The notes under the pieces were generated by a model that saw only the letters and a list, made by a program, of their open reading frames with translations, was not told the origin of the DNA and did no database searches. Of a DNA stretch of 64,000 nucleotides, positions 5,252-55,833 are shown piece after piece (the stretch's first letter is position 1; each line of letters starts with the position of its first letter). Both the position numbers and the translations under genes were made by a program. This DNA is from Candidatus Magasanikiibacteriota bacterium (lineage in GTDB: Bacteria; Patescibacteriota; Patescibacteriia; Magasanikbacterales; UBA922), in contig JBAYVA010000001.1 in NCBI GenBank assembly GCA_041674805.1, positions 390,612-454,611 of the forward strand, given 5' to 3'.

Positions 5252-6544
5252 TTATGTTAAAGATGCTTGATCAAAATCAATCAAATAAACTCGTGGACAA
5301 CGCGTCAAATCAGGTTTACCATTTTCATCTTTATAAAATAATAAAACAAAATTTCCACCATGATAATCATGACCATGTTCTATACCCAATTTTTTTATAC
5401 ATTTTCTTATTTTTTTAATCTTTTCTTCAATTTCTACTCTGAAAATAGTAGCAACACCACCACCAATGAGATCTTCTTCTTCATAATCACCAAAAGAAGG
5501 CCCATCTATTACTCCAGAAAATACGTCAACTATTTTTGATTTACTATTCAAAGTTGAAATTTTTACAATAGGTTCGATAGGTACATAGTCAAAACCTTGT
5601 CTTTCCCAAAAAGTATAAGATTCATAAGCTTTTTTCCAAGCCATAAGTGATTGAACAGGAATTTTTCTAAGTATGACTTTATTTTTCAAAGATTCTTCTT
5701 CCTTACCAAGTACTTTGTCAAAAAGAAAAGTATCAGGACCTGTCTTTTTTTGTTTTGTTCTTACTCGAAAATCTTCTTTATATAAACCAACAGAAGTCCA
5801 TTCTGGATGTTCTCTTATAATTTCTAATTGTTGTTGTTCTGACAAAAATTGAATCATTTTTGAATATTTAAAACGTGCATAAATAATATCACTTAATAAA
5901 CCTTTTCTGATAATATCTGCTAACAATTCCTGTAATTCTAATTGTTGTTGTTCTGAAGTATATTGAATCATACTTGCAAATTCAAAACGTACATATGAAT
6001 CATTAATTAATAAACTTTTTCTGATAACACTTGCTAACAATTCCTGTAATTCTAATTGTTGTTGTTCTGAAGTATATTGAATCATACTTGCAGAATTAAA
6101 ACGTACATATGAATCATTAATTAATAAACCTTTTCTGATAATATCTGCTAACAATTCCTGTAATTCTAATTGTTGTTCATGAGGTAAATTTTTAATCATC
6201 TTTGCAAACTCAAGACATACATATATATTACGATCTGACAAACCTTTTTTAACAATTTCTATTGATAATTTTTGTGATTCTAATTGTTGTTTATGAGGTA
6301 AATTTTGGATCATCTTTGCAGATTCAATACATATAATGCTATTAGAATCTGGTAAACCTGCCTTCACAATACCAATCAATTTTCCTTTATTAAATTTATC
6401 AACACTCTCTCGATACCTATCCACATCTTCCTGAGTAAAATCACTACCAGGCAAACTGTACATAGCACGAATAACAGGATCAACATCCTGTTCTTTTGAT
6501 TCTAAAGTTTCTAATTTTTTATCTAAAATTATTGTTTCAGACAT
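5252..6544 (-). CDS. HEAT/armadillo-like 38-aa tandem-repeat protein with C-terminal RIO/Kdo-type atypical kinase-like domain
   Basis: N-terminal half holds five ~38-aa repeats (…SEQQQLELQELLADIIRKGLL(I/S)...YVRF..ASMIQYT…). C-terminus ...GIEHGHDYHGGNFVLLF...PRVYLIDFDQA resembles the HGD...N catalytic loop and IDF(P/D)QA metal-binding motif of RIO / Kdo (WaaP/KdkA) kinases. Confidence 0.55.
   Translation of the reverse strand: MSETIILDKKLETLESKEQDVDPVIRAMYSLPGSDFTQEDVDRYRESVDKFNKGKLIGIVKAGLPDSNSIICIESAKMIQNLPHKQQLESQKLSIEIVKKGLSDRNIYVCLEFAKMIKNLPHEQQLELQELLADIIRKGLLINDSYVRFNSASMIQYTSEQQQLELQELLASVIRKSLLINDSYVRFEFASMIQYTSEQQQLELQELLADIIRKGLLSDIIYARFKYSKMIQFLSEQQQLEIIREHPEWTSVGLYKEDFRVRTKQKKTGPDTFLFDKVLGKEEESLKNKVILRKIPVQSLMAWKKAYESYTFWERQGFDYVPIEPIVKISTLNSKSKIVDVFSGVIDGPSFGDYEEEDLIGGGVATIFRVEIEEKIKKIRKCIKKLGIEHGHDYHGGNFVLLFYKDENGKPDLTRCPRVYLIDFDQASLT
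5816..6300. repeat. ~114-bp tandem direct repeats (about 5 copies; the two central copies 5931-6044 and 6045-6158 are near-identical) inside the CDS
   Basis: Unit CTGTAATTCTAATTGTTGTTGTTCTGAAGTATATTGAATCATACTTGCA...CTGCTAACAATTC is visible directly in the sequence; it encodes the 38-aa protein repeats. Confidence 0.85.
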
Positions 6545-11670: not shown

Positions 11671-11698
11671 AAAAAGCCTTGTCTAAAGGCTTTTTTTG
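11671..11698 (+). terminator. rho-independent terminator after the pentapeptide-repeat gene
   Basis: AAAGCCTT-gtcta-AAGGCTTT followed by TTTTGTG, read directly. Confidence 0.7.
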
Positions 11699-11778
11699 TG
11701 CTAAACTAGATTTATTAGTTAAATATAGATATTCTTGTAAGTATTTATTATTTTTGTTAAAGAAGTTTTGACTTGAAA

Positions 11779-11825
11779 AAGATCCCTCGTCGTATTCTCG
11801 ACTCAGGATGACGAATACCCTTATG
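11779..11825 (+). promoter_or_regulatory. mraY 5' leader: GATCCC - short CG hairpin - CTCAGGATGA ahead of the start
   Basis: aaaGATCCCtcgtcgtattctcgactcAGGATGAcgaataccctt ATG. Same architecture as the murB and GT2 leaders (see findings). Confidence 0.35.
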
Positions 11826-12953
11826 CTAATACCTTTAGAATCACTAAATCTACTCAGACAGGCCATTTTCTTTGGTCTGGTTTCTTGTGTTTTAGCTTTT
11901 CTTTGGGCTCCACTTTTAACCAAATTAATGTACAAATACAAGCTGACTAGATGTCCGGAATATGATGCTACTCTAGCCATGGGAGCAAGAAAAAGCAAAA
12001 TAGGTGTGCCAGTCATGGGAGGTCTTCTCGTCATTGTGACTGTTGCTGTCATCACAATTGCTTTCAACTGGGAAAGAAAATTCACTTGGGTACCAATTGG
12101 CGTCATGCTTCTCGCTGCCCTACTTGGTGGTATTGATGACGTCATGAATATCTACGGACACAAAAGACGCAGTCGCAAACTCAAACAAATTTTGACACTT
12201 ATCAAAGTCCACAAAGATTGGAAAATGCGTGTCTGGTATGCTCTCACTTTACCTTGGTCAATCTTCAAACGTACTTCTACTTTTCTTTCACGTCATCCTG
12301 GCAAAGGTATTCACGTTCATGAAAAATTATTATTGCAATTCTTGGCTGGAACCATTACCGCTTGGTGGATTTATTTCAAACTTGGTGAAAGCTGGCGCGA
12401 AATCCACATTCCTTTTGATGGCTTCATCAATATTGGTTGGTGGATCATTCCTCTGATTATCTTCTTCGTCATGTTTACTGCCAATGCGGTCAATGTCGCC
12501 GATGGTATGGATGGACTTGCAGGAGGATCTCTGATTATCACTTTTGCTGTCCTCACTATTCTCAGTTGGTTGGCAGGTTTCAAAGAAATGGCTTTTCTAA
12601 ACGCCACCACTGTTGGTGCGCTACTTACTTATACTTATTTCAATATCAAACCAGCTCGTTTCCAGATGGGCGATGTTGGCTCACTCGGGCTAGGGTCTTT
12701 GCTGGCTATCAATACCATAGTTCTCAATCAAATGTTACTTTTGCCTTTATTTGGTTTTATTTTTTATGTAGAAATTTTAAGTGTTGTCATCCAAATTTTT
12801 GGTCGCCAACTCTTGGGCAGAAGAATTTTCAAGATGGCACCAATACATTATCACTTCGAAATGCGTGGCTGGAATGAAGAAAAGACTGTGATGCGTTTCT
12901 GGCTTATTCATGCGGCGTTTGTGTTGCTTGGACTTTGGATATCACTTTATTAA
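11808..12953 (+). CDS. mraY: phospho-N-acetylmuramoyl-pentapeptide transferase MraY
   Basis: NAVNVADGMDGLAGG, PARFQMGDVGSLGLGSLLA, APIHYHFE and about 10 TM helices. The start may be the ATG at 11823 (MLIPLES...) rather than 11808. Local GC is higher than in neighbouring genes. Confidence 0.9.
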   Translation: MTNTLMLIPLESLNLLRQAIFFGLVSCVLAFLWAPLLTKLMYKYKLTRCPEYDATLAMGARKSKIGVPVMGGLLVIVTVAVITIAFNWERKFTWVPIGVMLLAALLGGIDDVMNIYGHKRRSRKLKQILTLIKVHKDWKMRVWYALTLPWSIFKRTSTFLSRHPGKGIHVHEKLLLQFLAGTITAWWIYFKLGESWREIHIPFDGFINIGWWIIPLIIFFVMFTANAVNVADGMDGLAGGSLIITFAVLTILSWLAGFKEMAFLNATTVGALLTYTYFNIKPARFQMGDVGSLGLGSLLAINTIVLNQMLLLPLFGFIFYVEILSVVIQIFGRQLLGRRIFKMAPIHYHFEMRGWNEEKTVMRFWLIHAAFVLLGLWISLY

Positions 12954-14776: not shown

Positions 14777-16180
14777 ATGCAAAAACAAAAACATATACAT
14801 TTCATCGGCATCTGCGGAGTAGCAATGAGTGCCCTCGCAATCGCTTTCCACAAACGCGGATATACAGTTACTGGAAGCGATAAAGGCTTCTATCCTCCAG
14901 TTTCAACTTATCTAAAAGATGCAGGTGTACCTTATTATCCAGGTTGGCACGTTGAAAAAATGACGAAAAACGGCGATCCAGATTTGATAATCGTCGGCAA
15001 TGTTGCAGGCTCAAACAATCCCGAATGGATGTACACCCAAGAAAAAAAACTAAACTACAAATCTTATCCAGAAGCTATTGCTGAATTTTTTGTCAAAGAA
15101 AATTCTATTGTCTGCGCGGGAACATTTGGTAAGACTACGACTACTTCCCTACTCGCTTGGATTTTGCAAGAAAATGATTTTGATCCAAGCTATATGTTTG
15201 GTGGTATTAGTCTAAACGATATGCCAGCAGCCAAATTGACTGACTCAAAATATTCTGTGCTTGAAGGTGATGAATACAAAAGTGCTCGTTGGGATGATGG
15301 TGCCAAATTTTTTCACTACTCACCTACTCACCTACTTTTGACTTCTGTAGTTTGGGATCATGCTGATGTCTATCCAACAGAACAATCTTATTTCACAGCT
15401 TTTGAAAAACTACTCAGCAACTTACCAGAATCTGGACTGCTCGTAACTAGCGAAAGAGTAAAAAAAGAAATGTTAGATTTTGCTAAATGCAAAATTATCA
15501 CTTACGGCAAAGATGCAAAAAATGATTATGTTTACCAAAATGTGACAGTAAACAAAACAGAAATAAAATTTGAAATAAAATATCAAGACCAAATTTTCCA
15601 AATCAATTCTCCTTTGCTTGGTGAATATTTGGTTGATAATATGACAGCTACTTTTGCCATGGCACACCAACTTGGTCTAGCACCTGACAAAATTATTCAA
15701 ACTACAAATACTTACAAAAATGTCAAAAGACGCTTGGAAAAAAGACTGGCTCTAGATATTACAGTCTTAGACGACATAGCTCATTCTCCACAAAAAGCTT
15801 CTTCTGTTTTGCAAACTCTAAAAAATATTTATTATGATGGCAAAGTAATAGCCATCTTTGAACCAAACTCAGGCAACAGACAAAAAGAAGCAATACCAGG
15901 CTATGATAACAAATTTTCTGATGCTGATTTAGTCATTATTCCCAAACTGACAGTAATCAAACAAACACCTGAAGAAGAAAAAGCTATTGAAGGAGAAGAA
16001 CTAACTGAAATAATTCGTAAGACACAAAAAAATGTAAAATATATTGATAATGATAATGAACTTGTTGATTATGTTGTCAAAATTGCTAAACCAAATGATG
16101 TGATTGCTTTCTTAGGTAGTCATGGCTTTCGTAATATGATTGAAGCAGTAGTAAAAGGCTTGAAAGGCTTAAAAAGCTAG
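14777..16180 (+). CDS. Mur ligase, MurC/Mpl family (sequence is closest to the Mpl type; by context the UDP-MurNAc--L-Ala ligase)
   Basis: IHFIGICGVAMSALAIAFHKRGYTVTGSDKGFYPPVST..., GTFGKTTTTSLLAWIL, VLEGDEYKSARWDDGAKFFHY.P..L.L..V.WDHADVY. The DEY..A.(F/W)D and YPP.ST motifs are Mpl-like rather than canonical MurC. Confidence 0.75.
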   Translation: MQKQKHIHFIGICGVAMSALAIAFHKRGYTVTGSDKGFYPPVSTYLKDAGVPYYPGWHVEKMTKNGDPDLIIVGNVAGSNNPEWMYTQEKKLNYKSYPEAIAEFFVKENSIVCAGTFGKTTTTSLLAWILQENDFDPSYMFGGISLNDMPAAKLTDSKYSVLEGDEYKSARWDDGAKFFHYSPTHLLLTSVVWDHADVYPTEQSYFTAFEKLLSNLPESGLLVTSERVKKEMLDFAKCKIITYGKDAKNDYVYQNVTVNKTEIKFEIKYQDQIFQINSPLLGEYLVDNMTATFAMAHQLGLAPDKIIQTTNTYKNVKRRLEKRLALDITVLDDIAHSPQKASSVLQTLKNIYYDGKVIAIFEPNSGNRQKEAIPGYDNKFSDADLVIIPKLTVIKQTPEEEKAIEGEELTEIIRKTQKNVKYIDNDNELVDYVVKIAKPNDVIAFLGSHGFRNMIEAVVKGLKGLKS

Positions 16181-16257
16181 AAAAGCCTGAAAGGCACAAT
16201 CAAAAATAATTCAAAAAAGCCTTTTAAGCCTTTCTGGCATTTCAGGCTTTTCCAGCA
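16154..16257. repeat. inverted pair of 9-nt-phased tandem arrays (AAAGGCTTN x5 ... GCCTTTNNN x5) overlapping the Mur-ligase stop codon
   Basis: aaaggcttg/aaaggctta/aaaagctag/aaaagcctg/aaaggc, then loop caatcaaaaataattcaaaa, then agcctttta/agcctttct/ggcatttca/ggcttttcc/agc. Can fold as a long imperfect hairpin. Same family as 20896-20942 and 54957-55027. Confidence 0.7.
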
Positions 16258-16266
16258 TTTGATTAT

Positions 16267-16877: not shown

Positions 16878-16914
16878 CGTAAATCCGCGTTATTTTCCGC
16901 GTAAGTCAGCTTCC

Positions 16915-17079
16915 TACTTACCTTCATCCACAATTTCAGCCAAAACATTTTCACCTTCCATATCAGTAATCATCAAAGTTATACCACACATATCACACTC
17001 TACAATGTTTTCTACTTCCAAATTTGGATAATTTACCAAATCAACTTCATTTTTACATTCTGGACAAACTAATTTCATA
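16915..17079 (-). CDS. LysW-like small zinc-ribbon protein (54 aa), not in the ORF track (below the 60-aa cutoff)
   Basis: Manual translation: MKLVCPECKNEVDLVNYPNLEVENIVECDMCGITLMITDMEGENVLAEIVDEGK. It has two CxxC pairs and an acidic C-terminal tail, and aligns with LysW/ArgW (MxxCPECGAEIELENPELGELVECxECGAELEV...L.LEPAPE.EEDWGE). It has its own terminator and replaces the implausible plus-strand track ORF 16846-17031. Confidence 0.5.
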
Positions 17080-17170: not shown

Positions 17171-17210
17171 AGGTCACATCCGTAAATCTGGATTATCCGG
17201 ATATCCGAAT
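17171..17210. repeat. TCCGTANNN 9-nt-phased array element (copy A), includes the perfect palindrome CGGATATCCG
   Basis: aggtcacATCCGTAAATCTGGATTATCCGGATATCCGaat. Near-identical to 46909-46946; degenerate copies at 18135-18172 and 24249-24299. Confidence 0.6.
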
Positions 17211-17215
17211 TTTTT

Positions 17216-18880: not shown

Positions 18881-20566
18881 ATGGAAAAAACTTTAGAAGA
18901 AATTTTATTAGAAATAATATCTTACCATCCCAAAACTAAGGATGATTTTAATGATGCTCGCCGTCGAATTTGTGGTAAATTGAAAACAGTCCAACCTTCC
19001 AACATGAAGCTTTTTACAGCTTACCAGAATTTGTTAAAAAAGAAAAGTATTACCATTGACAAAAACTTAGAATTACTTCTACGCAAAGCCGATATTCGCT
19101 CAATGTCTGGTGTTGCTATTATCACTTCTCTCATCAAACCTTACACTTGCCCTGGACAATGTATCTACTGCCCGACTGAAGTAAAAATGCCAAAAAGTTA
19201 CATTGCTACTGAACCAGCGGCTGCCCGTGCGCTTGCTCTAGCTTTTAGTCCTTACAGACAAATGCAAATGCGCCTAGACATGCTCGAAAAAACTGGTCAT
19301 CCAACTGACAAAATAGAATATATTTTGAAAGGCGGAACTTGGAATGCTTATCCTCTTCGTTACCAATATTGGTTTATTTTAGAATCTTTCAAAGCTTGCA
19401 ATGATCTGACAAGGAAAACACCAACCAAAGCTACGTTGGAAAAAGACTGGAAAGAAAAAACTCTGGAAGATTTACAAAATGCTTTGAAAATTGAACAAGA
19501 GTACAATGACAAAAAAGCTAAACACAAAATCATTGGCCTGACTCTCGAAACTCGTCCCGACGCTATTTCCCCAAAAACAATTTGGCATATGCGAGAACAA
19601 GGTTGTACTCGTATTGAACTTGGTCTCCAAGCTCCAGATGACAAAATTCTTGAACTAGTAAAACGTGGCCACACTGTCGAACAATTTCGCCAAGCTATTT
19701 TACTTTTGCGCCAAGCTGGTTTCAAAGTAGATTTGCATTTCATGCCAGATTTGCCAGGTACGACCGCCAAACACGATGTGGAGATGTACGCCAGTTTGTT
19801 TACTGACGAAGGTCTAAAACCTGACATGGTGAAAATTTATCCGTGTACTGTTATCAAAAGTGCCGAGCTATATGGCTGGTTTGAATCTGGTAAATACAAA
19901 CCTTATGCTAGCCAAGATTTGTTCAACGCTATACTTGAAATGAAAAAGTTAACTCCTTATTACTGCCGTATTTCTCGTCTTATTCGTGACATTCCTAGCA
20001 ACGAAATCGAAGGTGGAAATGCTATTACCAATCTTCGTGAAGCTCTAGAAAAAGAATTACACAAGCAAGGTGACTATTGCAAATGTTTACGTTGTCGCGA
20101 AGTCGGACATTCCGAAAAAATTCACAAAATAAAAGCAGACAAATTAATACCCCAACTTTTTGTCGAAGAATTTCAAACTCGTGGTGGACGAGAATTTTTC
20201 TTGAGTTTGGAAGATGAAGAACGTCGTATAGTCTTTGCTTTCTTGCGTCTTCGTCTACCAGAATATAATGACCAAATAAAAAAATCTGAAATACTTGAAA
20301 AATACCTTGGCCTTGGTGATTTGAAAAAATTAGCTTACGTCCGCGAACTTCATACTTACGGACAACTCGTCAACGTCGGTGACAAAAACAAGTCAGCCTC
20401 ACAACACAAAGGAATGGGAACAAAACTAGTCAAAGAAGCTGACAAAATTGCTAGAGAAAATGGTTACACAAAAATTGCTGTAATTTCTGGTGTTGGTGTA
20501 CGATCTTATTATCGAAAATTTGGCTATAAAAAAATTGGCACATATATGGCCAAAAATCTAAAATAG
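18881..20566 (+). CDS. Elp3-type radical-SAM + GNAT tRNA uridine(34) carboxymethyl/acetyl-transferase homologue
   Basis: 561 aa; radical-SAM cluster CPGQCIYCP, and a C-terminal GNAT domain HKGMGTKLVKEADKIARENGYTKIAVISGVGVRSYYRKFGYKKIGTYMAK that closely matches the Elp3 C-terminus (QHQG.G..L.EEAERIA....KIAVISGVGTR.YYRK.GY...GPYM.K). Confidence 0.8.
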   Translation: MEKTLEEILLEIISYHPKTKDDFNDARRRICGKLKTVQPSNMKLFTAYQNLLKKKSITIDKNLELLLRKADIRSMSGVAIITSLIKPYTCPGQCIYCPTEVKMPKSYIATEPAAARALALAFSPYRQMQMRLDMLEKTGHPTDKIEYILKGGTWNAYPLRYQYWFILESFKACNDLTRKTPTKATLEKDWKEKTLEDLQNALKIEQEYNDKKAKHKIIGLTLETRPDAISPKTIWHMREQGCTRIELGLQAPDDKILELVKRGHTVEQFRQAILLLRQAGFKVDLHFMPDLPGTTAKHDVEMYASLFTDEGLKPDMVKIYPCTVIKSAELYGWFESGKYKPYASQDLFNAILEMKKLTPYYCRISRLIRDIPSNEIEGGNAITNLREALEKELHKQGDYCKCLRCREVGHSEKIHKIKADKLIPQLFVEEFQTRGGREFFLSLEDEERRIVFAFLRLRLPEYNDQIKKSEILEKYLGLGDLKKLAYVRELHTYGQLVNVGDKNKSASQHKGMGTKLVKEADKIARENGYTKIAVISGVGVRSYYRKFGYKKIGTYMAKNLK

Positions 20567-20610
20567 TCTATTACAAAGTTCACGGGGGCTGTCATATCGA
20601 GCATCCCCCG

Positions 20611-20790
20611 TTAGTTCTCCTCGTCCTTCTCGTACAGGCTACATTCCTGTATCCTGCGTCGAATGTACACCTCCATCAACTTGCGGTATTCCCGCCGTTG
20701 TTTTTTGAAGTGCTCAGACGATTTGAATGAACCATTTTGCGTACTGAAATTCAATAGCTTAATCAACAATTGCCTCGTTCTCCTGTTCAT
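20611..20790 (-). CDS. putative small basic protein (59 aa from the third Met; 77 aa from the first) inside a GC-rich island; it may instead be a non-coding or mobile remnant
   Basis: Track ORF MHFCGLMEASTADQGGKAMNRRTRQLLIK...RREYRKLMEVYIRRRIQECSLYEKDEEN. Only the third ATG has an SD-like AAGGGGGTAAGG upstream. GC is about 50% by my count over 20601-20700 versus about 30% in flanks. Confidence 0.25.
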   Translation of the reverse strand: MNRRTRQLLIKLLNFSTQNGSFKSSEHFKKQRREYRKLMEVYIRRRIQECSLYEKDEEN

Positions 20791-20895
20791 AGCCTTACCC
20801 CCTTGGTCGGCTGTGCTTGCTTCCATTAGACCACAAAAATGCAAATCTGTAAAATATTTGCTTCACATTTTAAAAAATGATAAAATTAAACTAAT

Positions 20896-20942
20896 AAAAA
20901 GCCTTTCTAGCATTTCAAGCTTTTTAGGCCTTTCTAGCTTTT
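20896..20942. repeat. GCCTTTNNN 9-nt-phased tandem array (single arm)
   Basis: aaaagcctt/tctagcatt/tcaagcttt/ttaggcctt/tctagcttt; same family as 16215-16257 and 54988-55027. Confidence 0.65.
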
Positions 20943-20948
20943 AACCAT

Positions 20949-21359
20949 ATGATTTTACCTCCAAACTCAATCATTGCCTCTGGCCCTGTCATCATCGAAG
21001 ATGGCAAAGTTTTACTCAACAAAGAAATCAAAGAATCTGGTATTACACCTTGGTTTTTCCCAGGTGGTGAAGTGGAAAGCTTTGATATCAATCTCGAAGA
21101 AGCCTGCAAACGTGAAGCCAAAGAAGAAGTTGGTATTGATGTAGAAATAATAAAACCACTAGACACTTTGCTACACAAAAAATCTGATGGCAGTTTAGTA
21201 ATACTTGTTCATTATTTAGCTAACAGAATTGGTGAAATTAAGAAAGGTGAAAATATTTCCGAAGTTGCCTGGCATGATATAAATAATTTGCCTGATGATT
21301 GTGCTCCTAATGTTAAAATGATAATCTCAAAATATATTGAACGAGGTGTTAGAGAATAA
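20949..21359 (+). CDS. NUDIX hydrolase
   Basis: Nudix box GGEVESFDINLEEACKREAKEEVG. Confidence 0.75.
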   Translation: MILPPNSIIASGPVIIEDGKVLLNKEIKESGITPWFFPGGEVESFDINLEEACKREAKEEVGIDVEIIKPLDTLLHKKSDGSLVILVHYLANRIGEIKKGENISEVAWHDINNLPDDCAPNVKMIISKYIERGVRE

Positions 21360-21388
21360 CACAAATAAACCACAAATAGACACAAATT
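21358..21388. repeat. CACAAAT direct-repeat array (3 units, 10-11-nt phasing), forward orientation
   Basis: aaCACAAATaaacCACAAATagaCACAAATt immediately 5' of the GxxExxY gene; inverted partner at 21785-21815. Confidence 0.65.
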
Positions 21389-21766
21389 ATGGAGGGAGAT
21401 AATAATGTTTATAAAGAACTATCTTATGTTGTAAATGGTATATTCTTTCAAGTTCAAAATGAACTTGGTACTAATTTTCAAGAAAAGCACTACGTAAGAG
21501 CTGTTGCAACTTTGCTTATAAAAAAAGGAATACCTTTTGAATTAGAATATCCTTTCAAAGTAACTTACAATGGTCAATTCTTAGGGAAATTTCAAGCCGA
21601 CATGCTAATAGATAAAAAAATAATTGTTGAATTTAAAACAGTACCATTTTTGAATAATAATCACAGACAACAATTGTTGAGATATGTAAAATCTCTAAAC
21701 GTAAAACTTGGTTTATTAGTAAATTTCAGAGAATACCCTCTTAAAATAATAAGAATCGCAAATTAA
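21389..21766 (+). CDS. GxxExxY-family protein (PD-(D/E)XK nuclease superfamily)
   Basis: 125 aa; YKELSYVVNGIFFQVQNELG..., D..IDKKIIVEFK (putative D...E.K core), ...LLRYVKSLNVKLGLLVNF. Flanked by inverted CACAAAT arrays. Confidence 0.6.
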   Translation: MEGDNNVYKELSYVVNGIFFQVQNELGTNFQEKHYVRAVATLLIKKGIPFELEYPFKVTYNGQFLGKFQADMLIDKKIIVEFKTVPFLNNNHRQQLLRYVKSLNVKLGLLVNFREYPLKIIRIAN

Positions 21767-21784
21767 AATATAAAATTAACTAGA

Positions 21785-21815
21785 AACATTTGTGTATATT
21801 TGTGCACATTTGTAC
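21785..21815. repeat. ATTTGTG array (reverse orientation of the CACAAAT family) between the GxxExxY gene and glyA
   Basis: aacATTTGTGtatATTTGTGcacATTTGTac. Confidence 0.65.
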
Positions 21816-23091: not shown

Positions 23092-23170
23092 ATATTTGTG
23101 TATATTTGTGAACATTTGTGATATAAAAACGTGAATAACACAAATAAATCACAAATATACACAAATTTTT
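23092..23170. repeat. palindromic pair of CACAAAT-family arrays (ATTTGTG x3 - spacer - CACAAAT x3) between glyA and tsaE
   Basis: atATTTGTGtatATTTGTGaacATTTGTGatat aaaaacgtgaat aaCACAAATaaatCACAAATataCACAAATtttt. Confidence 0.65.
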
Positions 23171-24248: not shown

Positions 24249-24299
24249 TTATCCGTAAATCTGTATTCCACCCAAGGCGGACAAGTATCCGTAATATGT
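24249..24299. repeat. TCCGTANNN array element (copy D), interrupted by a 17-18-nt GC-rich insert CCACCCAAGGCGGACAAG
   Basis: cttATCCGTAAATCTGTATTccacccaaggcggacaagTATCCGTAATATg. Confidence 0.5.
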
Positions 24300-24305
24300 A
24301 TGTTT

Positions 24306-27295: not shown

Positions 27296-27304
27296 AATTT
27301 CTAT

Positions 27305-27330
27305 TAACTAAGAACTCCGAACCAAGAACT
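27305..27330. repeat. heptamer (NNNGAAC) tandem array, solo copy of the GTTC/GAAC family
   Basis: taagaac/tccgaac/caagaac abutting the pyrG stop; related copies at 30779-30806, 55393-55423, 55798-55831. Confidence 0.55.
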
Positions 27331-28960: not shown

Positions 28961-29104
28961 ATTTTTTATAAATTAAAAATCCTAAATCTAAAATCCTAAA
29001 TCTAATAATATACTAAAAAATATTTTTGATTTATGATTTCGGATTTTTGATTTTTCAATATGCCAAACATTATACCAAATTTTTTCAAATCTGTGTAATC
29101 AGTG

Positions 29105-29132
29105 TAATTAAAAAACCACCGGCAGTCGGTGG
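29105..29132 (-). terminator. rho-independent terminator after rplI
   Basis: On the minus strand: CCACCG-actgc-CGGTGG followed by TTTTTTAATTAC. Confidence 0.7.
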
Positions 29133-29586: not shown

Positions 29587-29729
29587 AAGCAAAAACAGAT
29601 AAAAATGAATTTATGTATTTATTATAGGTCAATATTGATTTTTATGCAAGAATGTGGTAGCATTGAAGTGTTAGTTTTAAAAGTTAAAGAAAATTCTCAA
29701 TAAAAACCAAACTTAAACTTTCAAAAAAG

Positions 29730-29840
29730 AGCTTACGAGGCTTACAAGGCTTACGAGGCTCATACAATCTCATTAAAAATGTTCACCTAAGTATAACAGG
29801 CCTTGTAAGCCCTGTAAGCCTTGTGAGCATTGTAAGCCTC
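29730..29840. repeat. long imperfect palindrome built from 9-nt tandem repeats (GCTTACRAG x3 ... CTTGTRAGC x5) upstream of era
   Basis: gcttacgag/gcttacaag/gcttacgag/gctcat ... loop ... ggccttgta/agccctgta/agccttgtg/agcattgta/agcctcg; it ends 5 nt before the era ATG. Confidence 0.7.
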
Positions 29841-29844
29841 GTTT

Positions 29845-30693: not shown

Positions 30694-30737
30694 AAGTTTG
30701 TAAAGTTATAAAGTTGAAAGTTTATAAAGTAACTTAA

Positions 30738-30778: not shown

Positions 30779-30806
30779 TACTAAGAACTCTGAACACTAA
30801 ACTATT
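30779..30806. repeat. heptamer (NNNGAAC) tandem array, solo copy
   Basis: ctaagaac/tctgaac/actaaac, immediately after the terminator. Confidence 0.5.
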
Positions 30807-36958: not shown

Positions 36959-37165
36959 ATAACACTGATTACATTGATTTTAAAAAATTACACTGAAATT
37001 AAATTGATAAACTTTTCTTTAAAATATTTACTTTTAATTAATAACTTTTTTATACTCTTATATATTATCATTGATATTTTTTTATCTACACCAATTATTT
37101 TTGTAATCAAATTATTCTTTTTAAACATAATCTGCGAAATCATCAAAAATCAGTGTAATCAGTGC

Positions 37166-41328: not shown

Positions 41329-42177
41329 TTAACTTTTAAATTTATTAATAACATACACTAAAAAAATTCCTACTGGTCTTGCAATTGCAATCCACATCCA
41401 CTTATACCACGCTTCCCATTTCTGAAAATAAATTAGCATACTTCTCGTAAAATTCTTTTGCTTCCAAAGACTTTCTTGCTTTTTGAAACTTTGACCAACA
41501 TAGTCTACAGCCGTAATCACCGGACTATACATGACTTTTAATCCCATTTTTTTCACCTCACGACAAATATCTACATCTTCATACCAAATATAATATCTAG
41601 GGTCAAAGGCAAAGCCTAGTTTCTCTACCACTTCACGACGCATCAGCATAAAAGAACCCCGCACAGAGTCAACCTCTTGTTCTTTACTTCCATCAAAATC
41701 TTTCATCAAATATTTGTCCATCATTTTTGGAAAAACATGTGGTAATTTCAAAATAAGAGCTACTTGTTCCCATACTATTGGCAATCTGCGAGGCTTGGCG
41801 TCTTCATTTAATTTTTCATTTTCATCTACCAATCTTGGACTAACAATTCCCACGTCTTTTCTTTTTTCCAGCCAATCAACAATCACATCCAGACTTCCAT
41901 CTTCTACTTTCATATCAGGGTTCAAGAACAATAAATATTCACCAGTACTAATTTCAACACCTTGATTGTTGGCATGTGAAAAACCAGTATTTTCAGTATT
42001 AGCAATGACTTTTACATTTGGCAATAATTTGACAATTTCAACAGTTTTATCAGCTGAGGCATTGTCCACTATGATTTGTTCAAATTCTAGATTTTTACAA
42101 CCCGAAATCACTGACTTCATTTGTCTTTCTATTTGTTTTTCATTGTTCCAGGTAACTGTGATGATAGATAGTTTCAT
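41329..42177 (-). CDS. glycosyltransferase family 2
   Basis: LSIITVTWNNEKQI..., IIVDNASADKT, LFLNPDMKV. Start at the second ATG, which lies 9 nt after AGGATGA. Confidence 0.65.
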   Translation of the reverse strand: MKLSIITVTWNNEKQIERQMKSVISGCKNLEFEQIIVDNASADKTVEIVKLLPNVKVIANTENTGFSHANNQGVEISTGEYLLFLNPDMKVEDGSLDVIVDWLEKRKDVGIVSPRLVDENEKLNEDAKPRRLPIVWEQVALILKLPHVFPKMMDKYLMKDFDGSKEQEVDSVRGSFMLMRREVVEKLGFAFDPRYYIWYEDVDICREVKKMGLKVMYSPVITAVDYVGQSFKKQESLWKQKNFTRSMLIYFQKWEAWYKWMWIAIARPVGIFLVYVINKFKS

Positions 42178-42222
42178 AGGACAATTCATCCTGAGCCGAC
42201 GAAGTACGGCGTGAGGATCTTT
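42178..42222 (-). promoter_or_regulatory. GT2 5' leader: GATCC - GCCG/CGGC hairpin - CTCAGGATGA
   Basis: Minus strand: aaaGATCCtcacGCCGtacttcgtCGGCtcAGGATGAattgtcct ATG. Confidence 0.35.
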
Positions 42223-42318
42223 CTTAAGATAAAATCTCGTAATTAAAATACACAGACAATTATATAAAGTCTTTCTTATATTATCAATTCTAGCCTATTT
42301 TAAACTAAAAATCAAGCA

Positions 42319-46864: not shown

Positions 46865-46908
46865 AAAACAAAATTTTCAATTTAGGAATTTTAAATTTTA
46901 AAAAATGT

Positions 46909-46946
46909 AGGTCACATCCGTAAATCCGTATTATCCGTATATCAGG
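46909..46946. repeat. TCCGTANNN 9-nt-phased array element (copy B)
   Basis: aggtcacATCCGTAAATCCGTATTATCCGTATATCagg; near-identical to 17171-17210. Confidence 0.6.
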
Positions 46947-46949
46947 ATT

Positions 46950-53326: not shown

Positions 53327-53562
53327 AGATGTAAAATTATTATTTAATTGTATTTTATAATATTATCAGAATGATTTTTAATCGTCAAATCACTAAAAGT
53401 GTATTCCTTATTTCAGATAACTACTTGTATACGATAATACCATAAATTAGCAAAAAAACAAACTTTTGAACAGTCTAAACACATAATACACACAACAGGC
53501 TAAATCAAAAGCCTTGTTTTCCTGACAAATCTAATGTAATATACTATCACTAGAGATAATTT

Positions 53563-54957
53563 ATGCCAGAAATTACAGACATTGAAAAAATTCCACCACA
53601 AAATATTGAAGCCGAAAAATCACTTTTGGGCTCTATTTTAATTGATAAAGATGCCATGCTAAAAATCTCAGACATAGTAGAAAGTGCTGACTTTTACAAA
53701 AGATCACATGCCTATATCTATGAAATAATGTCCGAATTATATCAAAAAAATGAACCTATCGATGTTTTAACTGTAGCTAATCGCTTAGAAGAAAGACAAA
53801 TTCTAGAAAAATGTGGTGGTAGAAGCTACTTAGTAGAACTATCTAACTCTGTACCAACAGCTTCTCATATCAAACAATATGCTGAAATAATCAAACGTAA
53901 ATCTACTTTACGCCAATTATTGAATTCTGCACATGAAATTTCCAAATTAGGTTATCAAGAAGACGTCGACGATGTAGACCAACTTTTAGACCAAGCCCAA
54001 CAACATCTTTACGGTATAACTCAAAAGCATATGAAACAAACTTTTGTTTCTATTCGTGGTATTTTGAGTACTGCTTTTGAACGTATTGATGAACTACACA
54101 AGGAAAAAGGTAAACTCCGTGGCGTACCAAGTGGTATCACTAAATTAGATGATTTACTTGGTGGTTTCCAAAAATCTGATCTAATAATTTTAGCTGCCCG
54201 TCCATCTGTTGGTAAAACTTCTTTTGCTTTAGACATAGCTCGTCATGCTGCCACAAAACACAAAGTCCCTGTTGGTTTTTTTTCACTTGAAATGAGTAAA
54301 GAACAACTAGTAGATAGAATGCTTTGTGCTGAGGCTGGTATTGACTTGTGGAAGATGAGAACTGGCAATTTGTCAGATAAACCTGATAGCGATGACTTTC
54401 CTCGTATTGGACACGCTATGGGTGTACTTTCCGAAGCACCAATTTATATTGATGATACTCCAGGAAACAATGTTATGCAGATTAGAACAAAAGCTCGTCG
54501 CCTTCAAGCAGAACACGGACTTGGTATGATTGTTATTGACTATATGCAACTTATGGAATCTCACAATGACAAAAATAGCAGTAACCGCGTGCAAGAAGTC
54601 GCTGTTATTAGTAGAAATCTAAAAGGTATTGCCCGTGAATTGAATATTCCTGTAATTGCCCTATCTCAGTTAGCTCGTGCAGTAGAACAAAGCAAACCAG
54701 CTATTCCAAAATTATCTCACTTACGTGAATCTGGTAGTATTGAACAGGATGCTGATATCGTTATGTTTTTGTATCGTAAATCTGTTGATAGAAATTATCG
54801 CCCAGAAGATATTCCACCTGATGAAAAAAATATTGCTGAAATACACATTGCTAAACATAGAAATGGTCCAACTGGTGTAGTTCGTACTTACTTTGATGAA
54901 GCTCGTACTTCTTTCAAAAATCTTGATACCAATACGACTTATGATAGTGGGGAATAA
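53563..54957 (+). CDS. dnaB: replicative DNA helicase DnaB
   Basis: PPQNIEAEKSLLGSIL..., Walker A ARPSVGKTSFAL, Walker B IVIDYMQLM, ...SQLARAVEQ, ...LRESGSIEQDADIVMFLYR. Confidence 0.92.
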   Translation: MPEITDIEKIPPQNIEAEKSLLGSILIDKDAMLKISDIVESADFYKRSHAYIYEIMSELYQKNEPIDVLTVANRLEERQILEKCGGRSYLVELSNSVPTASHIKQYAEIIKRKSTLRQLLNSAHEISKLGYQEDVDDVDQLLDQAQQHLYGITQKHMKQTFVSIRGILSTAFERIDELHKEKGKLRGVPSGITKLDDLLGGFQKSDLIILAARPSVGKTSFALDIARHAATKHKVPVGFFSLEMSKEQLVDRMLCAEAGIDLWKMRTGNLSDKPDSDDFPRIGHAMGVLSEAPIYIDDTPGNNVMQIRTKARRLQAEHGLGMIVIDYMQLMESHNDKNSSNRVQEVAVISRNLKGIARELNIPVIALSQLARAVEQSKPAIPKLSHLRESGSIEQDADIVMFLYRKSVDRNYRPEDIPPDEKNIAEIHIAKHRNGPTGVVRTYFDEARTSFKNLDTNTTYDSGE

Positions 54958-54977
54958 AAAAGCCTGAAAGGCTTTTT
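54957..54977 (+). terminator. rho-independent terminator after dnaB
   Basis: AAAAGCCT-gaa-AGGCTTTT + TG; also the first unit of the GCCTTT array family. Confidence 0.65.
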
Positions 54978-54987
54978 GATAATAATA

Positions 54988-55027
54988 GCTTTTTAAGCCT
55001 TTCTGGCATTTTAGGCCTTTCAAGCTT
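54988..55027. repeat. GCCTTTNNN 9-nt-phased tandem array (single arm)
   Basis: agcttttta/agcctttct/ggcatttta/ggcctttca/agctt. Confidence 0.65.
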
Positions 55028-55098
55028 ACTTTAAAAATGTTAAAATATAAAAACAATATAAACTTTATTAATTAAAAAAATATTAAATATAAAACCGT

Positions 55099-55395: not shown

Positions 55396-55423
55396 TTCTT
55401 AGTTCGCAGTTCATAGTTCATAG
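55393..55423. repeat. AGTTCNN heptamer tandem array (x4), left inverted flank of the four-helix-bundle gene
   Basis: tagttctt/agttcgc/agttcat/agttcat/ag. Confidence 0.6.
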
Positions 55424-55429
55424 ATTTGT

Positions 55430-55783
55430 ATGCAAACATGCAAGGATTTGAAAGTCTGTCAAAAATCGATAAAATTAGTTACTTCAATTTATAAATTGAC
55501 AGAATCTTTCCCTGACATAGAAAAATTTGGATTGATAAGTCAGATGAGGAGAGCTTCAGTATCAATACCATCAAACATAGCTGAAGGTTTTGCCAGAAGA
55601 AACAAAAAAGAAAATGCTCATTTTATCAGCATTTCTTATGCCTCCGGCACAGAGTTAGATACTCAACTTGTTATAGCAAAAGAGTTAAATTTCATTTCTG
55701 AACAAAATTTAAAAGAAGTTGCATCACAACTCGAAGAAATTTTAAAGATGCTTTATTCTTACCGCGAATACCTATACAAATAA
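55430..55783 (+). CDS. four-helix-bundle protein (23S rRNA intervening-sequence protein family, TIGR02436-like)
   Basis: DLKVCQKSIKLVTSIYKLTESFPDIEKFGLISQMRRASVSIPSNIAEGFARR...FISISYASGTELDTQLVIAKEL. Confidence 0.7.
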   Translation: MQTCKDLKVCQKSIKLVTSIYKLTESFPDIEKFGLISQMRRASVSIPSNIAEGFARRNKKENAHFISISYASGTELDTQLVIAKELNFISEQNLKEVASQLEEILKMLYSYREYLYK

Positions 55784-55797
55784 AATATTTCAAAAAT

Positions 55798-55831
55798 TCT
55801 AAGAACTAAGAACACTGAACTCAGAACTCTG
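55798..55831. repeat. NNGAACT heptamer tandem array, right inverted flank of the four-helix-bundle gene
   Basis: ctaagaact/aagaacact/gaactcagaactctga; its reverse complement is agttctg/agttcag/tgttctt/agttctt/ag. Confidence 0.6.
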
Positions 55832-55833
55832 AT

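Follow-up and report, generated by a model that had tools for sequence, protein, structure and literature searches.

What are the short, strictly phased tandem repeats that lie against the start and stop codons of a Patescibacteria genome, and from what might they derive? The question is raised by a 64,000-nucleotide stretch of contig JBAYVA010000001.1 (positions 390,612 to 454,611 of the forward strand) from a Candidatus Magasanikiibacteriota bacterium, referred to here in its entirety as the window. Arrays of contiguous 9-mers are found at four gene junctions of the window, either as inverted pairs or as solitary arms. These arrays are probably the arms of gene-less, miniature members of intervening sequence (IVS)-type cassettes, the full-length forms of which carry a gene for a protein of the 23S_rRNA_IVP family (IVP). 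Such members would be akin to miniature inverted-repeat transposable elements (MITEs) or to REPINs, the hairpin doublets of repetitive extragenic palindromes (REPs).

Phased arrays of the window

The window, with a G+C content of about 31%, contains a total of six arms, each composed of 4-5 phased 9-mers and spread over four loci. The components of the four elements are as follows.

16151-16195, + strand: element 1, left arm of five units (GTAAAAGGC TTGAAAGGC TTAAAAAGC TAGAAAAGC CTGAAAGGC)
16196-16218, + strand: element 1, loop of 23 nt without an open reading frame (ORF)
16219-16263, + strand: element 1, right arm of five units (GCCTTTTAA GCCTTTCTG GCATTTCAG GCTTTTCCA GCATTTGAT)
20901-20945, + strand: element 2, solitary right arm of five units (GCCTTTCTA GCATTTCAA GCTTTTTAG GCCTTTCTA GCTTTTAAC)
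29729-29766, + strand: element 3, left arm of the sister subtype with CTTACRAGG units (GAGCTTACGAG GCTTACAAG GCTTACGAG GCTCATACA)
29800-29844, + strand: element 3, right arm of five units (GCCTTGTAA GCCCTGTAA GCCTTGTGA GCATTGTAA GCCTCGTTT)
54958-54977, + strand: element 4, left-arm remnant of two units, directly 3' of the dnaB stop codon
54988-55032, + strand: element 4, right arm of five units (GCTTTTTAA GCCTTTCTG GCATTTTAG GCCTTTCAA GCTTACTTT)

A previous sequence-only reading of this DNA had correctly placed three of these loci (elements 1, 2, and 4). The fourth, a sister subtype ahead of era at 29729-29844, was absent from it, as were the other phased-array families of the window and the association with 23S_rRNA_IVP genes. 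The similarity among the loci exceeds chance, the RGCNTTTNNRGCNTTT pattern being matched 15 times in the window versus 0.06 expected. A composition-free test was also applied, in which at least four 'GC' dinucleotides spaced exactly 9 nt were required and the outcome was compared with shuffles and with other periods from 6 to 13 nt. It gave 11 pattern matches versus 0.07 expected, which merge into six arms versus 0.025 in shuffles, and the periods other than 9 gave 0-1 arms. Chance or pure slippage is ruled out by these statistics together with an architecture that is common to many genomes.

The gene at 14777-16180, a Mur ligase by its Pfam domains, takes its final nine codons and its TAG stop (16178-16180) from the left arm of element 1, and the protein ends in ...EAVVKGLKGLKS*. 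The right arms of elements 1 to 3 end 0-3 nt ahead of the starts of two NUDIX genes and era. Specifically, the ATG codons of the first (16267) and second (20949) NUDIX genes begin 3 nt past elements 1 and 2, respectively, and that of era (29845) adjoins element 3 with a gap of 0 nt. Element 3 is positioned in the divergent spacer between rplI and era, and element 4 lies between dnaB and ybaB. A translated repeat was considered and rejected, given that by eye the right arms meet stop codons in all three frames; translation extends into the left arm of element 1 alone, as the nine-codon tail of the Mur ligase. An extended -10-like sequence, TGATAAAAT, is located at 20878-20886 upstream of element 2, and thus the array would be nearly the whole 5' untranslated region (UTR).

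Elements 1 and 3 are predicted to form long, imperfect hairpins of -40.7 kcal/mol (z -4.1) and -53.2 kcal/mol (z -9.1), respectively. The proposal that paired arms fold in this manner accordingly holds for these two elements and fails for the copy at 54950-55035 (element 4), the folding of which is not significantly above that of shuffles (z -1.4). Element 2 alone is unstructured (z -0.4). The arrays had also been declared not to be clustered regularly interspaced short palindromic repeats (CRISPR), with which we concur: the 9-nt units are contiguous and without spacers, whereas CRISPR repeats measure 23-50 nt and alternate with unique spacers of comparable length. An Rfam scan of the window produced nothing at the gathering score and only chance-level matches around 20500-21000, and neither tRNA nor rRNA was found in the window.

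Anatomy of the family and its IVP cassettes

Two collection scans returned like imperfect arrays in Candidatus Magasanikbacteria and in other Patescibacteria, which bears out the earlier suggestion of a dispersed, non-coding, intergenic, and hairpin-forming repeat family with a strict 9-nt phase and further copies elsewhere. Among the matches listed, the first scan yielded mostly unrelated perfect coding repeats from many phyla, and only imperfect AT-rich arrays on Patescibacteria-type contigs were counted as family. Again among the matches listed, these arrays come from Magasanikbacteria, from other members of the Patescibacteria, and from numerous metagenome contigs (30-48% G+C) that have no taxonomic assignment. 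The resulting sample, drawn from the matches listed of the two scans, comprises 161 imperfect arms from about 100 related loci. The metagenome sample was chosen by a pattern needing at least four units and the GCC-GCA order, and a simple longest-ORF heuristic supplied the gene boundaries for the pattern-scan loci on which the anatomical figures rest.

The unit consensus for the 161 arms is GC-[C>A>T]-TTT-Y-N-R. The number of units per arm displays a sharp mode at five (45 nt), with 96 arms having five units, 47 having four, and eight having six. All of the inverted pairs (36/36) adopt one polarity, (YNRAAANGC)n-loop-(GCNTTTYNR)n, and their loops measure mostly -2 to 33 nt. The arm tips are situated at -4 to +6 nt relative to a start codon or, for the gene at the opposite side, at -13 to +2 nt relative to its stop codon, and 14 of the 17 fully resolved pairs lie between co-directional genes. 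Where a spacer contains a pair, the element leaves a median of 3.5 nt unoccupied, compared with a median length of 64 nt for co-directional spacers lacking arrays, only 26% of which measure 10 nt or less. All examined copies are located between protein-coding genes, and among the copies sampled the gene-less ones are far commoner than those carrying a gene. Solitary right arms often have an extended -10-like motif 15-24 nt upstream.

No pair-specific complementarity of the arms was detected in the GCNTTT family (0.776 for arms of the same pair vs 0.772 +/- 0.007 for arms from other loci). Pairing thus stems from the conserved core and the Y/R positions rather than from co-evolution of a given pair. 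Arms with such periodicity can pair in any register, which would explain why unequal numbers of units (2+5, 4+5) are tolerated and why pair-specific covariation is absent.

Loci L030, L057, and L075, from metagenome-assembled genomes (MAGs) labelled as uncultured Gammaproteobacteria, show typical arrays and an IVP cassette; they include the 1.23-Mb chromosome OZ246405.1 (37-40% G+C). Either the family reaches beyond the Patescibacteria or the records are mislabelled.

The link to IVP genes is found in the cassettes themselves, of which the window contains one with arms of a 7-nt period.

55396-55833, + strand: 7-nt-armed IVP cassette, with (AGTTCNN)x5 at 55396-55429, the gene at 55430-55783, and (NNGAACT)x5 at 55797-55833

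The gene encodes a four-helix-bundle protein of the 23S_rRNA_IVP family (PF05635, TIGR02436) that is weakly Avd-like. In the IVP cassettes that were folded, this one included, the flanking arrays pair across the 350-nt ORF in both the minimum free energy and the centroid structures. The window shares its insertion between ybaB and recR with two related loci (L235 and L238), and L134 lacks it there. Solitary arms of the 7-nt family were also observed next to gene 3' ends at 27300-27328 and 30780-30804.

The four 9-nt copies of the window are themselves gene-less. In related loci (L163/L247, L196, L030, L243, L244, and L248), a PF05635 gene is flanked by GC-phased arms of the 9-nt type. Note that L247, identical in sequence to L163, comes from the assembly that also contains L024, so that a genome with dispersed GCCTTT arrays holds the cognate cassette. 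Among the IVPs compared, those with 9-nt arms (L163, L196, and L030) share 64-78% identity with one another and only 38-43% with the 7-nt-armed IVP of the window, the relatives of which (L235, L238/L240, and L241) all have 7-nt arms. The IVP clade and the arm type therefore go together. An IVP from Pedobacter likewise has inverted phased arms, with the 7-nt unit TTAGNNN. In all, about a dozen independent IVP contexts were considered.

Two junctions are informative with regard to the relationship between the gene-carrying and gene-less forms. Between rpmB and an M50 peptidase gene, L243 has a gene-carrying cassette and L244 a gene-less pair, with flanking sequence common to both. At the atpD-atpC junction, the P0126 contig has an IVP cassette, and in L140 gene-less pairs lie on either side of atpC. 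A separate observation is that IVP cassette genes have strong Shine-Dalgarno (SD)-like sequences (AAGGAGG, GGGGGG) 5-7 nt before the ATG (L243, 19090-19110; L244, 20295-20312).

A closing stem, an IVP ORF in its loop, and tandem repeats beside the ORF together constitute the architecture of the 23S rRNA intervening sequences. The IVP or S23p proteins are among the commonest uncharacterised small proteins in the Bacteroidota, Cyanobacteria, and Candidate Phyla Radiation. In Coxiella, the 23S rRNA IVS is excised by RNase III, its S23p ORF has decayed, and its origin is probably horizontal (PMC4990558). The heptamer GACAGAT occurs beside that ORF in two to three copies plus a degenerate one, and the number varies (PMC4990558). 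In the literature searched, no description was found of phased inverted arrays around IVP genes or of gene-less derivatives of these.

Orthologous sites, the proposed cassette, and the alternatives

The window is syntenic, at 77-96% nucleotide identity, with contigs of Candidatus Magasanikbacteria RIFOXYD12_FULL_33_17 (L024) and of a Patescibacteria MAG (L079), and its proteins find their nearest matches in those of the Magasanikbacteria. L024 is the closest sequenced relative (77-81% nucleotide identity). Homologous elements lie between dnaB and ybaB in the window, L024, L134, and L235, with left arms of two, five, five, and five units, respectively. The units at 54958-54977 had been taken for a terminator hairpin of dnaB; they are instead the remnant of a five-unit left arm that is intact in two relatives, and the terminator scan calls none there. 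In L235 all units of both arms belong to the TYGYAA / TTRCRA subtype, and the arms remain complementary. The 5' UTR of dnaB lacks an array in the window, whereas L024 has five units of the GCCTTT type there and L134 an 8-nt-phased array of the ATCCG type. Ahead of era, the arrays of L079 and L137 are of the GCNTTT subtype, and only the window has a left arm and the GCCTTGTAA subtype. As can be seen from these comparisons, positions can persist for long periods, and presence, arm length, and subtype turn over.

In the proposed plan, an element would consist of (YNRAAANGC)5, a short loop, and (GCNTTTYNR)5, with full-length members carrying the IVP gene in the loop. Of the four gene-less copies in the window, the first is complete, another is a complete copy of the sister subtype, a third has lost most of its left arm to decay, and the last is a solitary arm. 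The elements sit exactly at gene junctions and would be co-transcribed with their neighbours, and on the RNA the arms are predicted to pair as a long, imperfect closing stem (-40 to -53 kcal/mol). The stem would close off the insert and, by analogy with the rRNA IVSs, would be a likely substrate for RNase III. Cleavage by that enzyme would spare the flanking cistrons and keep the upstream stop beside the downstream start, and the insert would thereby be harmless to them. Transcription of the elements, their processing by RNase III, and the manner in which they spread are inferred; what the analysis shows is their anatomy, the family, its tie to IVP cassettes, the variable occupancy of orthologous sites, and the predicted stem.

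Several observations weigh against a derivation from IVP cassettes. No transposase or other mobility enzyme was found linked to the family, and the IVP is without known catalytic activity. Nor was a signal of target-site duplication obtained, with a longest direct repeat over the element ends of 4.34 nt versus 4.03 +/- 0.19 nt for mismatched ends. Solitary arms are unable to form the stem, and no gene for RNase III was seen in the window. Certain copies give the impression of being conserved and not selfish. The window, L079, and L137, with genes that are 71-85% identical, all retain an array upstream of era, the unit sequences of which differ. In a similar vein, the right arm at dnaB-ybaB is nearly identical between the window and L024, with about three differences by eye in the alignment, and is more conserved than the flanking coding DNA (about 81% identical genes). 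Finally, the IVP genes might have entered pre-existing host hairpins, rather than the hairpins having been derived from cassettes.

An alternative, which we consider unlikely, is that the elements are intercistronic RNA modules of benefit to the host. The stem would serve as a site for operon processing or stability or would couple stop to start, and the IVP genes would be secondary passengers of the loop. The coupling envisaged is termination-reinitiation in a genome without SD sites, with the solitary right arm acting as a U-rich, unstructured 5' leader. An SD-like motif does lie upstream of only 5 of the 62 called window genes, and the 16S rRNA 3' tail, CCUCCUUUCU, is kept in array-bearing relatives. 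The elements reach within a few nucleotides of stop and start, far more tightly than do array-free spacers, and solitary arms positioned 15-24 nt past an extended -10-like motif would form the whole 5' UTR. A host function would also suit the retention of position at era and dnaB-ybaB in genomes 71-85% identical, where the GC and T-rich cores are kept and other positions vary, and the switch in unit type between L235 and the window at dnaB-ybaB, which hits both arms with complementarity preserved. It is less easily reconciled, however, with presence or absence and family replacement at orthologous sites, with the lack of pair-specific covariation in the GCNTTT family, or with an arm type that follows the IVP clade. 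The gene pairs that carry an element are unrelated housekeeping ones, and only about 4 of the 62 window genes have one. Moreover, a stable stem ending at the ATG should impede initiation.

A further proposal, which appears quite improbable, is that each five-unit arm serves as the binding register for one IVP toroid, a homopentamer in which every subunit would take a single unit of 7-9 nt. A single strand would wrap the ring as in TRAP, and the dispersed arrays would be an IVP regulon or handles for mobilisation. The Avd protein is a pentameric nucleic-acid-binding protein, which reportedly binds nucleic acid without sequence specificity, and the latter property counts against such a register. 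The IVP is homologous to the Avd of diversity-generating retroelements (PMC10053308), a solved IVP homologue contains five chains (PDB 2GSC), and the structure of S23p is given as a homopentameric toroid (cited in PMC4990558). The sharp five-unit mode of the 9-nt family is also in accord with a pentamer, as are the 7-nt arms of about five units beside IVP genes, although arms of 4-8 units occur. The co-variation of arm type with IVP clade would be equally expected if the arms and the ORF move together, and an unrelated GxxExxY/PD-(D/E)XK_3 cassette (21389-21766) has analogous arms of 10 nt x 3, which are thus not specific to IVP. If true, the proposal would give the IVP a function, namely recognition of its own cassette arms and of the dispersed gene-less copies. 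It could shield the arms from RNase III or present them to it, or alternatively it could take part in mobilisation through an RNA intermediate, as Avd does with its reverse transcriptase. A linked possibility is that the stem lets ribosomes cross from the upstream stop to the downstream start.

It is most improbable that the arrays act at the DNA level, as operators, iterons, or centromere-like sites bound by a repressor of the ribbon-helix-helix or a similar type, or that they are intrinsic terminators. In favour of such readings, adjoining repeats of 7-10 bp, both direct and inverted, recall the operators of omega, ParR, or MetJ, the A-rich 5' arm and U-rich 3' arm recall bidirectional terminators, and element 4 comes after dnaB. 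Against them, at least five phased families in 64 kb would require too many regulators for so small a genome. No + strand terminator is called in any of the four elements, where a short G+C-rich stem-loop with a U tract is lacking, and the terminators that the window does use at other places are canonical, short, and GC-rich. Promoter-like matches are no more frequent than in shuffles, in a consensus scan that is itself uninformative here. Many elements adjoin a downstream start (several abut the codon itself) with no room for a promoter and where efficient termination would silence the gene.

Two narrower candidates were also set aside. A promoter within the array, or a leaderless promoter, was rejected as no -10-like hexamer lies at the right distance from the ATG by eye and the scan gave no excess. 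A boxA (GCUCUUUAA) or NusB-NusE site, to which there is a likeness of 7-8 of 9, was dropped since the sister subtypes GCCTTGTAA, GCCTCGCAA, GCCTCTACA, and GCCTCCCCG occupy the same positions.

Related systems, neighbouring features, and significance

The systems closest to the arrays are, in order, the rRNA IVSs with an S23p ORF, REPIN-RAYT, the Correia elements, and the mycobacterial interspersed repetitive units (MIRUs). In the rRNA IVSs of the Coxiella, Leptospira, Brucella, and Xanthomonas type, flanking inverted repeats likewise form a long closing stem. They share with the full-length cassettes a PF05635 protein in the loop, variable numbers of short tandem repeats beside the ORF, a sporadic and horizontal-looking distribution, and decay or loss of the ORF. 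The rRNA IVSs, however, reside in helix 25 or 45 of the 23S rRNA, whereas the elements described here lie between protein-coding genes, have arms made wholly of about five phased units, and among the copies sampled occur much more commonly in the gene-less form. Excision by RNase III has been demonstrated for the rRNA IVSs (PMC4990558) and for the arrays would hold by analogy.

Like REPINs and REPs, the arrays are dispersed intergenic hairpin doublets accompanied by a protein gene flanked by the same repeats, with genome-specific sequence 'dialects' and no target-site duplication. A REP, however, is a single palindrome of 20-40 nt with a conserved 5' tetranucleotide rather than a set of tandem 9-mers. 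The REPIN partner is RAYT, a Y1 transposase, whereas the protein associated with the arrays is a non-enzymatic four-helix bundle. No RAYT was present in the subset of window genes that was scanned, and the repeat-flanked genes found encode IVPs. The sequence-only reading had termed the element REP/MITE-like. The comparison with MITEs stands insofar as the arrays would be gene-less derivatives of a larger element, which encodes only the four-helix-bundle protein rather than a transposase with the same termini. That with REPs does not, given that no GTAG-type palindrome was seen in the arms (consensus GC-N-TTT-Y-N-R) and there is no signal of target-site duplication.

The Correia elements of Neisseria (CREE/NEMIS) are similarly intergenic inverted-repeat elements of about 100-150 bp. 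They are co-transcribed with their neighbours, as the arrays would be, and they are bound or cleaved by RNase III and able to supply promoters (PMC2649163). They differ from the arrays in the duplication of a TA target, the non-periodic terminal repeats, the integration host factor site, and the absence of a gene-carrying full-length form. The MIRUs, like the arrays, occupy intercistronic operon junctions, where, as reportedly described by Supply et al. in 1997, they touch the flanking stop and start codons. They are direct repeats of 40-100 bp with small coupling ORFs and no hairpins, whereas the arrays have no internal ORF.

At least five distinct phased-array families are found within the 64 kb of the window. 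Around the GxxExxY/PD-(D/E)XK_3 gene (21389-21766, within 21360-21815) are inverted 10-nt arrays, with three CACAAATANN units on the upstream side and three NNNATTTGTG units on the downstream side. This 10-nt family is also represented between glyA and tsaE (23092-23166) by an inverted pair without a gene, the arm order of which is apparently opposite. Arrays of the 8-nt unit ATCCGNNN are found at gene starts (17178-17215, 46905-46949, 24255-24300, and 16880-16915) and in the dnaB 5' UTR of L134 (3395-3445). Additional intergenic arrays include an AAATCCT / GATTTNN inverted pair of the 7-nt AAATCNN family, AATCAGTGT repeats, and AAAGTTNT repeats after era.

28976-29055, 29088-29108, 36959-36985, 37140-37165, and 30694-30731: sites of these further short-period arrays

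Phased short repeats seem to make up much of the intergenic DNA of this genome. A small hairpin, ACAGGCT-AAATCAAA-AGCCTTGT, sits ahead of the dnaB promoter region at 53495-53525; with its single GCCTTGT-type unit, it may represent either an element in decay or the seed of one. Terminator-like hairpins with a single AAAGCC...GGCTTT unit occur also at 11674-11701.

Three other features of the window deserve mention. The region at 20567-20840, between a radical-SAM/ELP3-like gene and a NUDIX gene, is G+C-rich, apparently structured, and without a convincing ORF; a 93-residue ORF at 20663-20944 has no Pfam match and runs into the array. A guess that the region encodes the signal recognition particle RNA was not confirmed, there being no Rfam match, and it may be an unrecognised non-coding RNA. 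A G+C-rich motif of ~30 nt, AAGATCC(C/T)C...CG(A/G)CTCAGG, lies at 11779-11807 and at 42190-42228 (minus strand), directly before the ATG codons of two different glycosyltransferase genes (11808-12953 and 41329-42189), which suggests a common leader or regulatory element. Lastly, 3-4.5 copies of a 114-nt tandem repeat (83-88% matches) are present at 5822-6370 within a gene for a 430-residue protein (5252-6544, minus strand), and thus the protein contains a repeated module of 38 residues.

If the arrays are the gene-less relatives of IVP cassettes, then the same kind of element that is known as the rRNA IVS would live between ordinary genes, its stems built from phased repeats of about five units. 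The gene-less copies would be abundant and would fill operon junctions to the base. GC phased at 9 nt, five units, and a fixed polarity would serve as a signature for annotation, one that may account for a sizeable fraction of Patescibacteria intergenic DNA. The finding also yields testable hypotheses, namely that a pentamer may read five repeats, that RNase III may excise the elements from mRNA, and that the arms may pair free of register.

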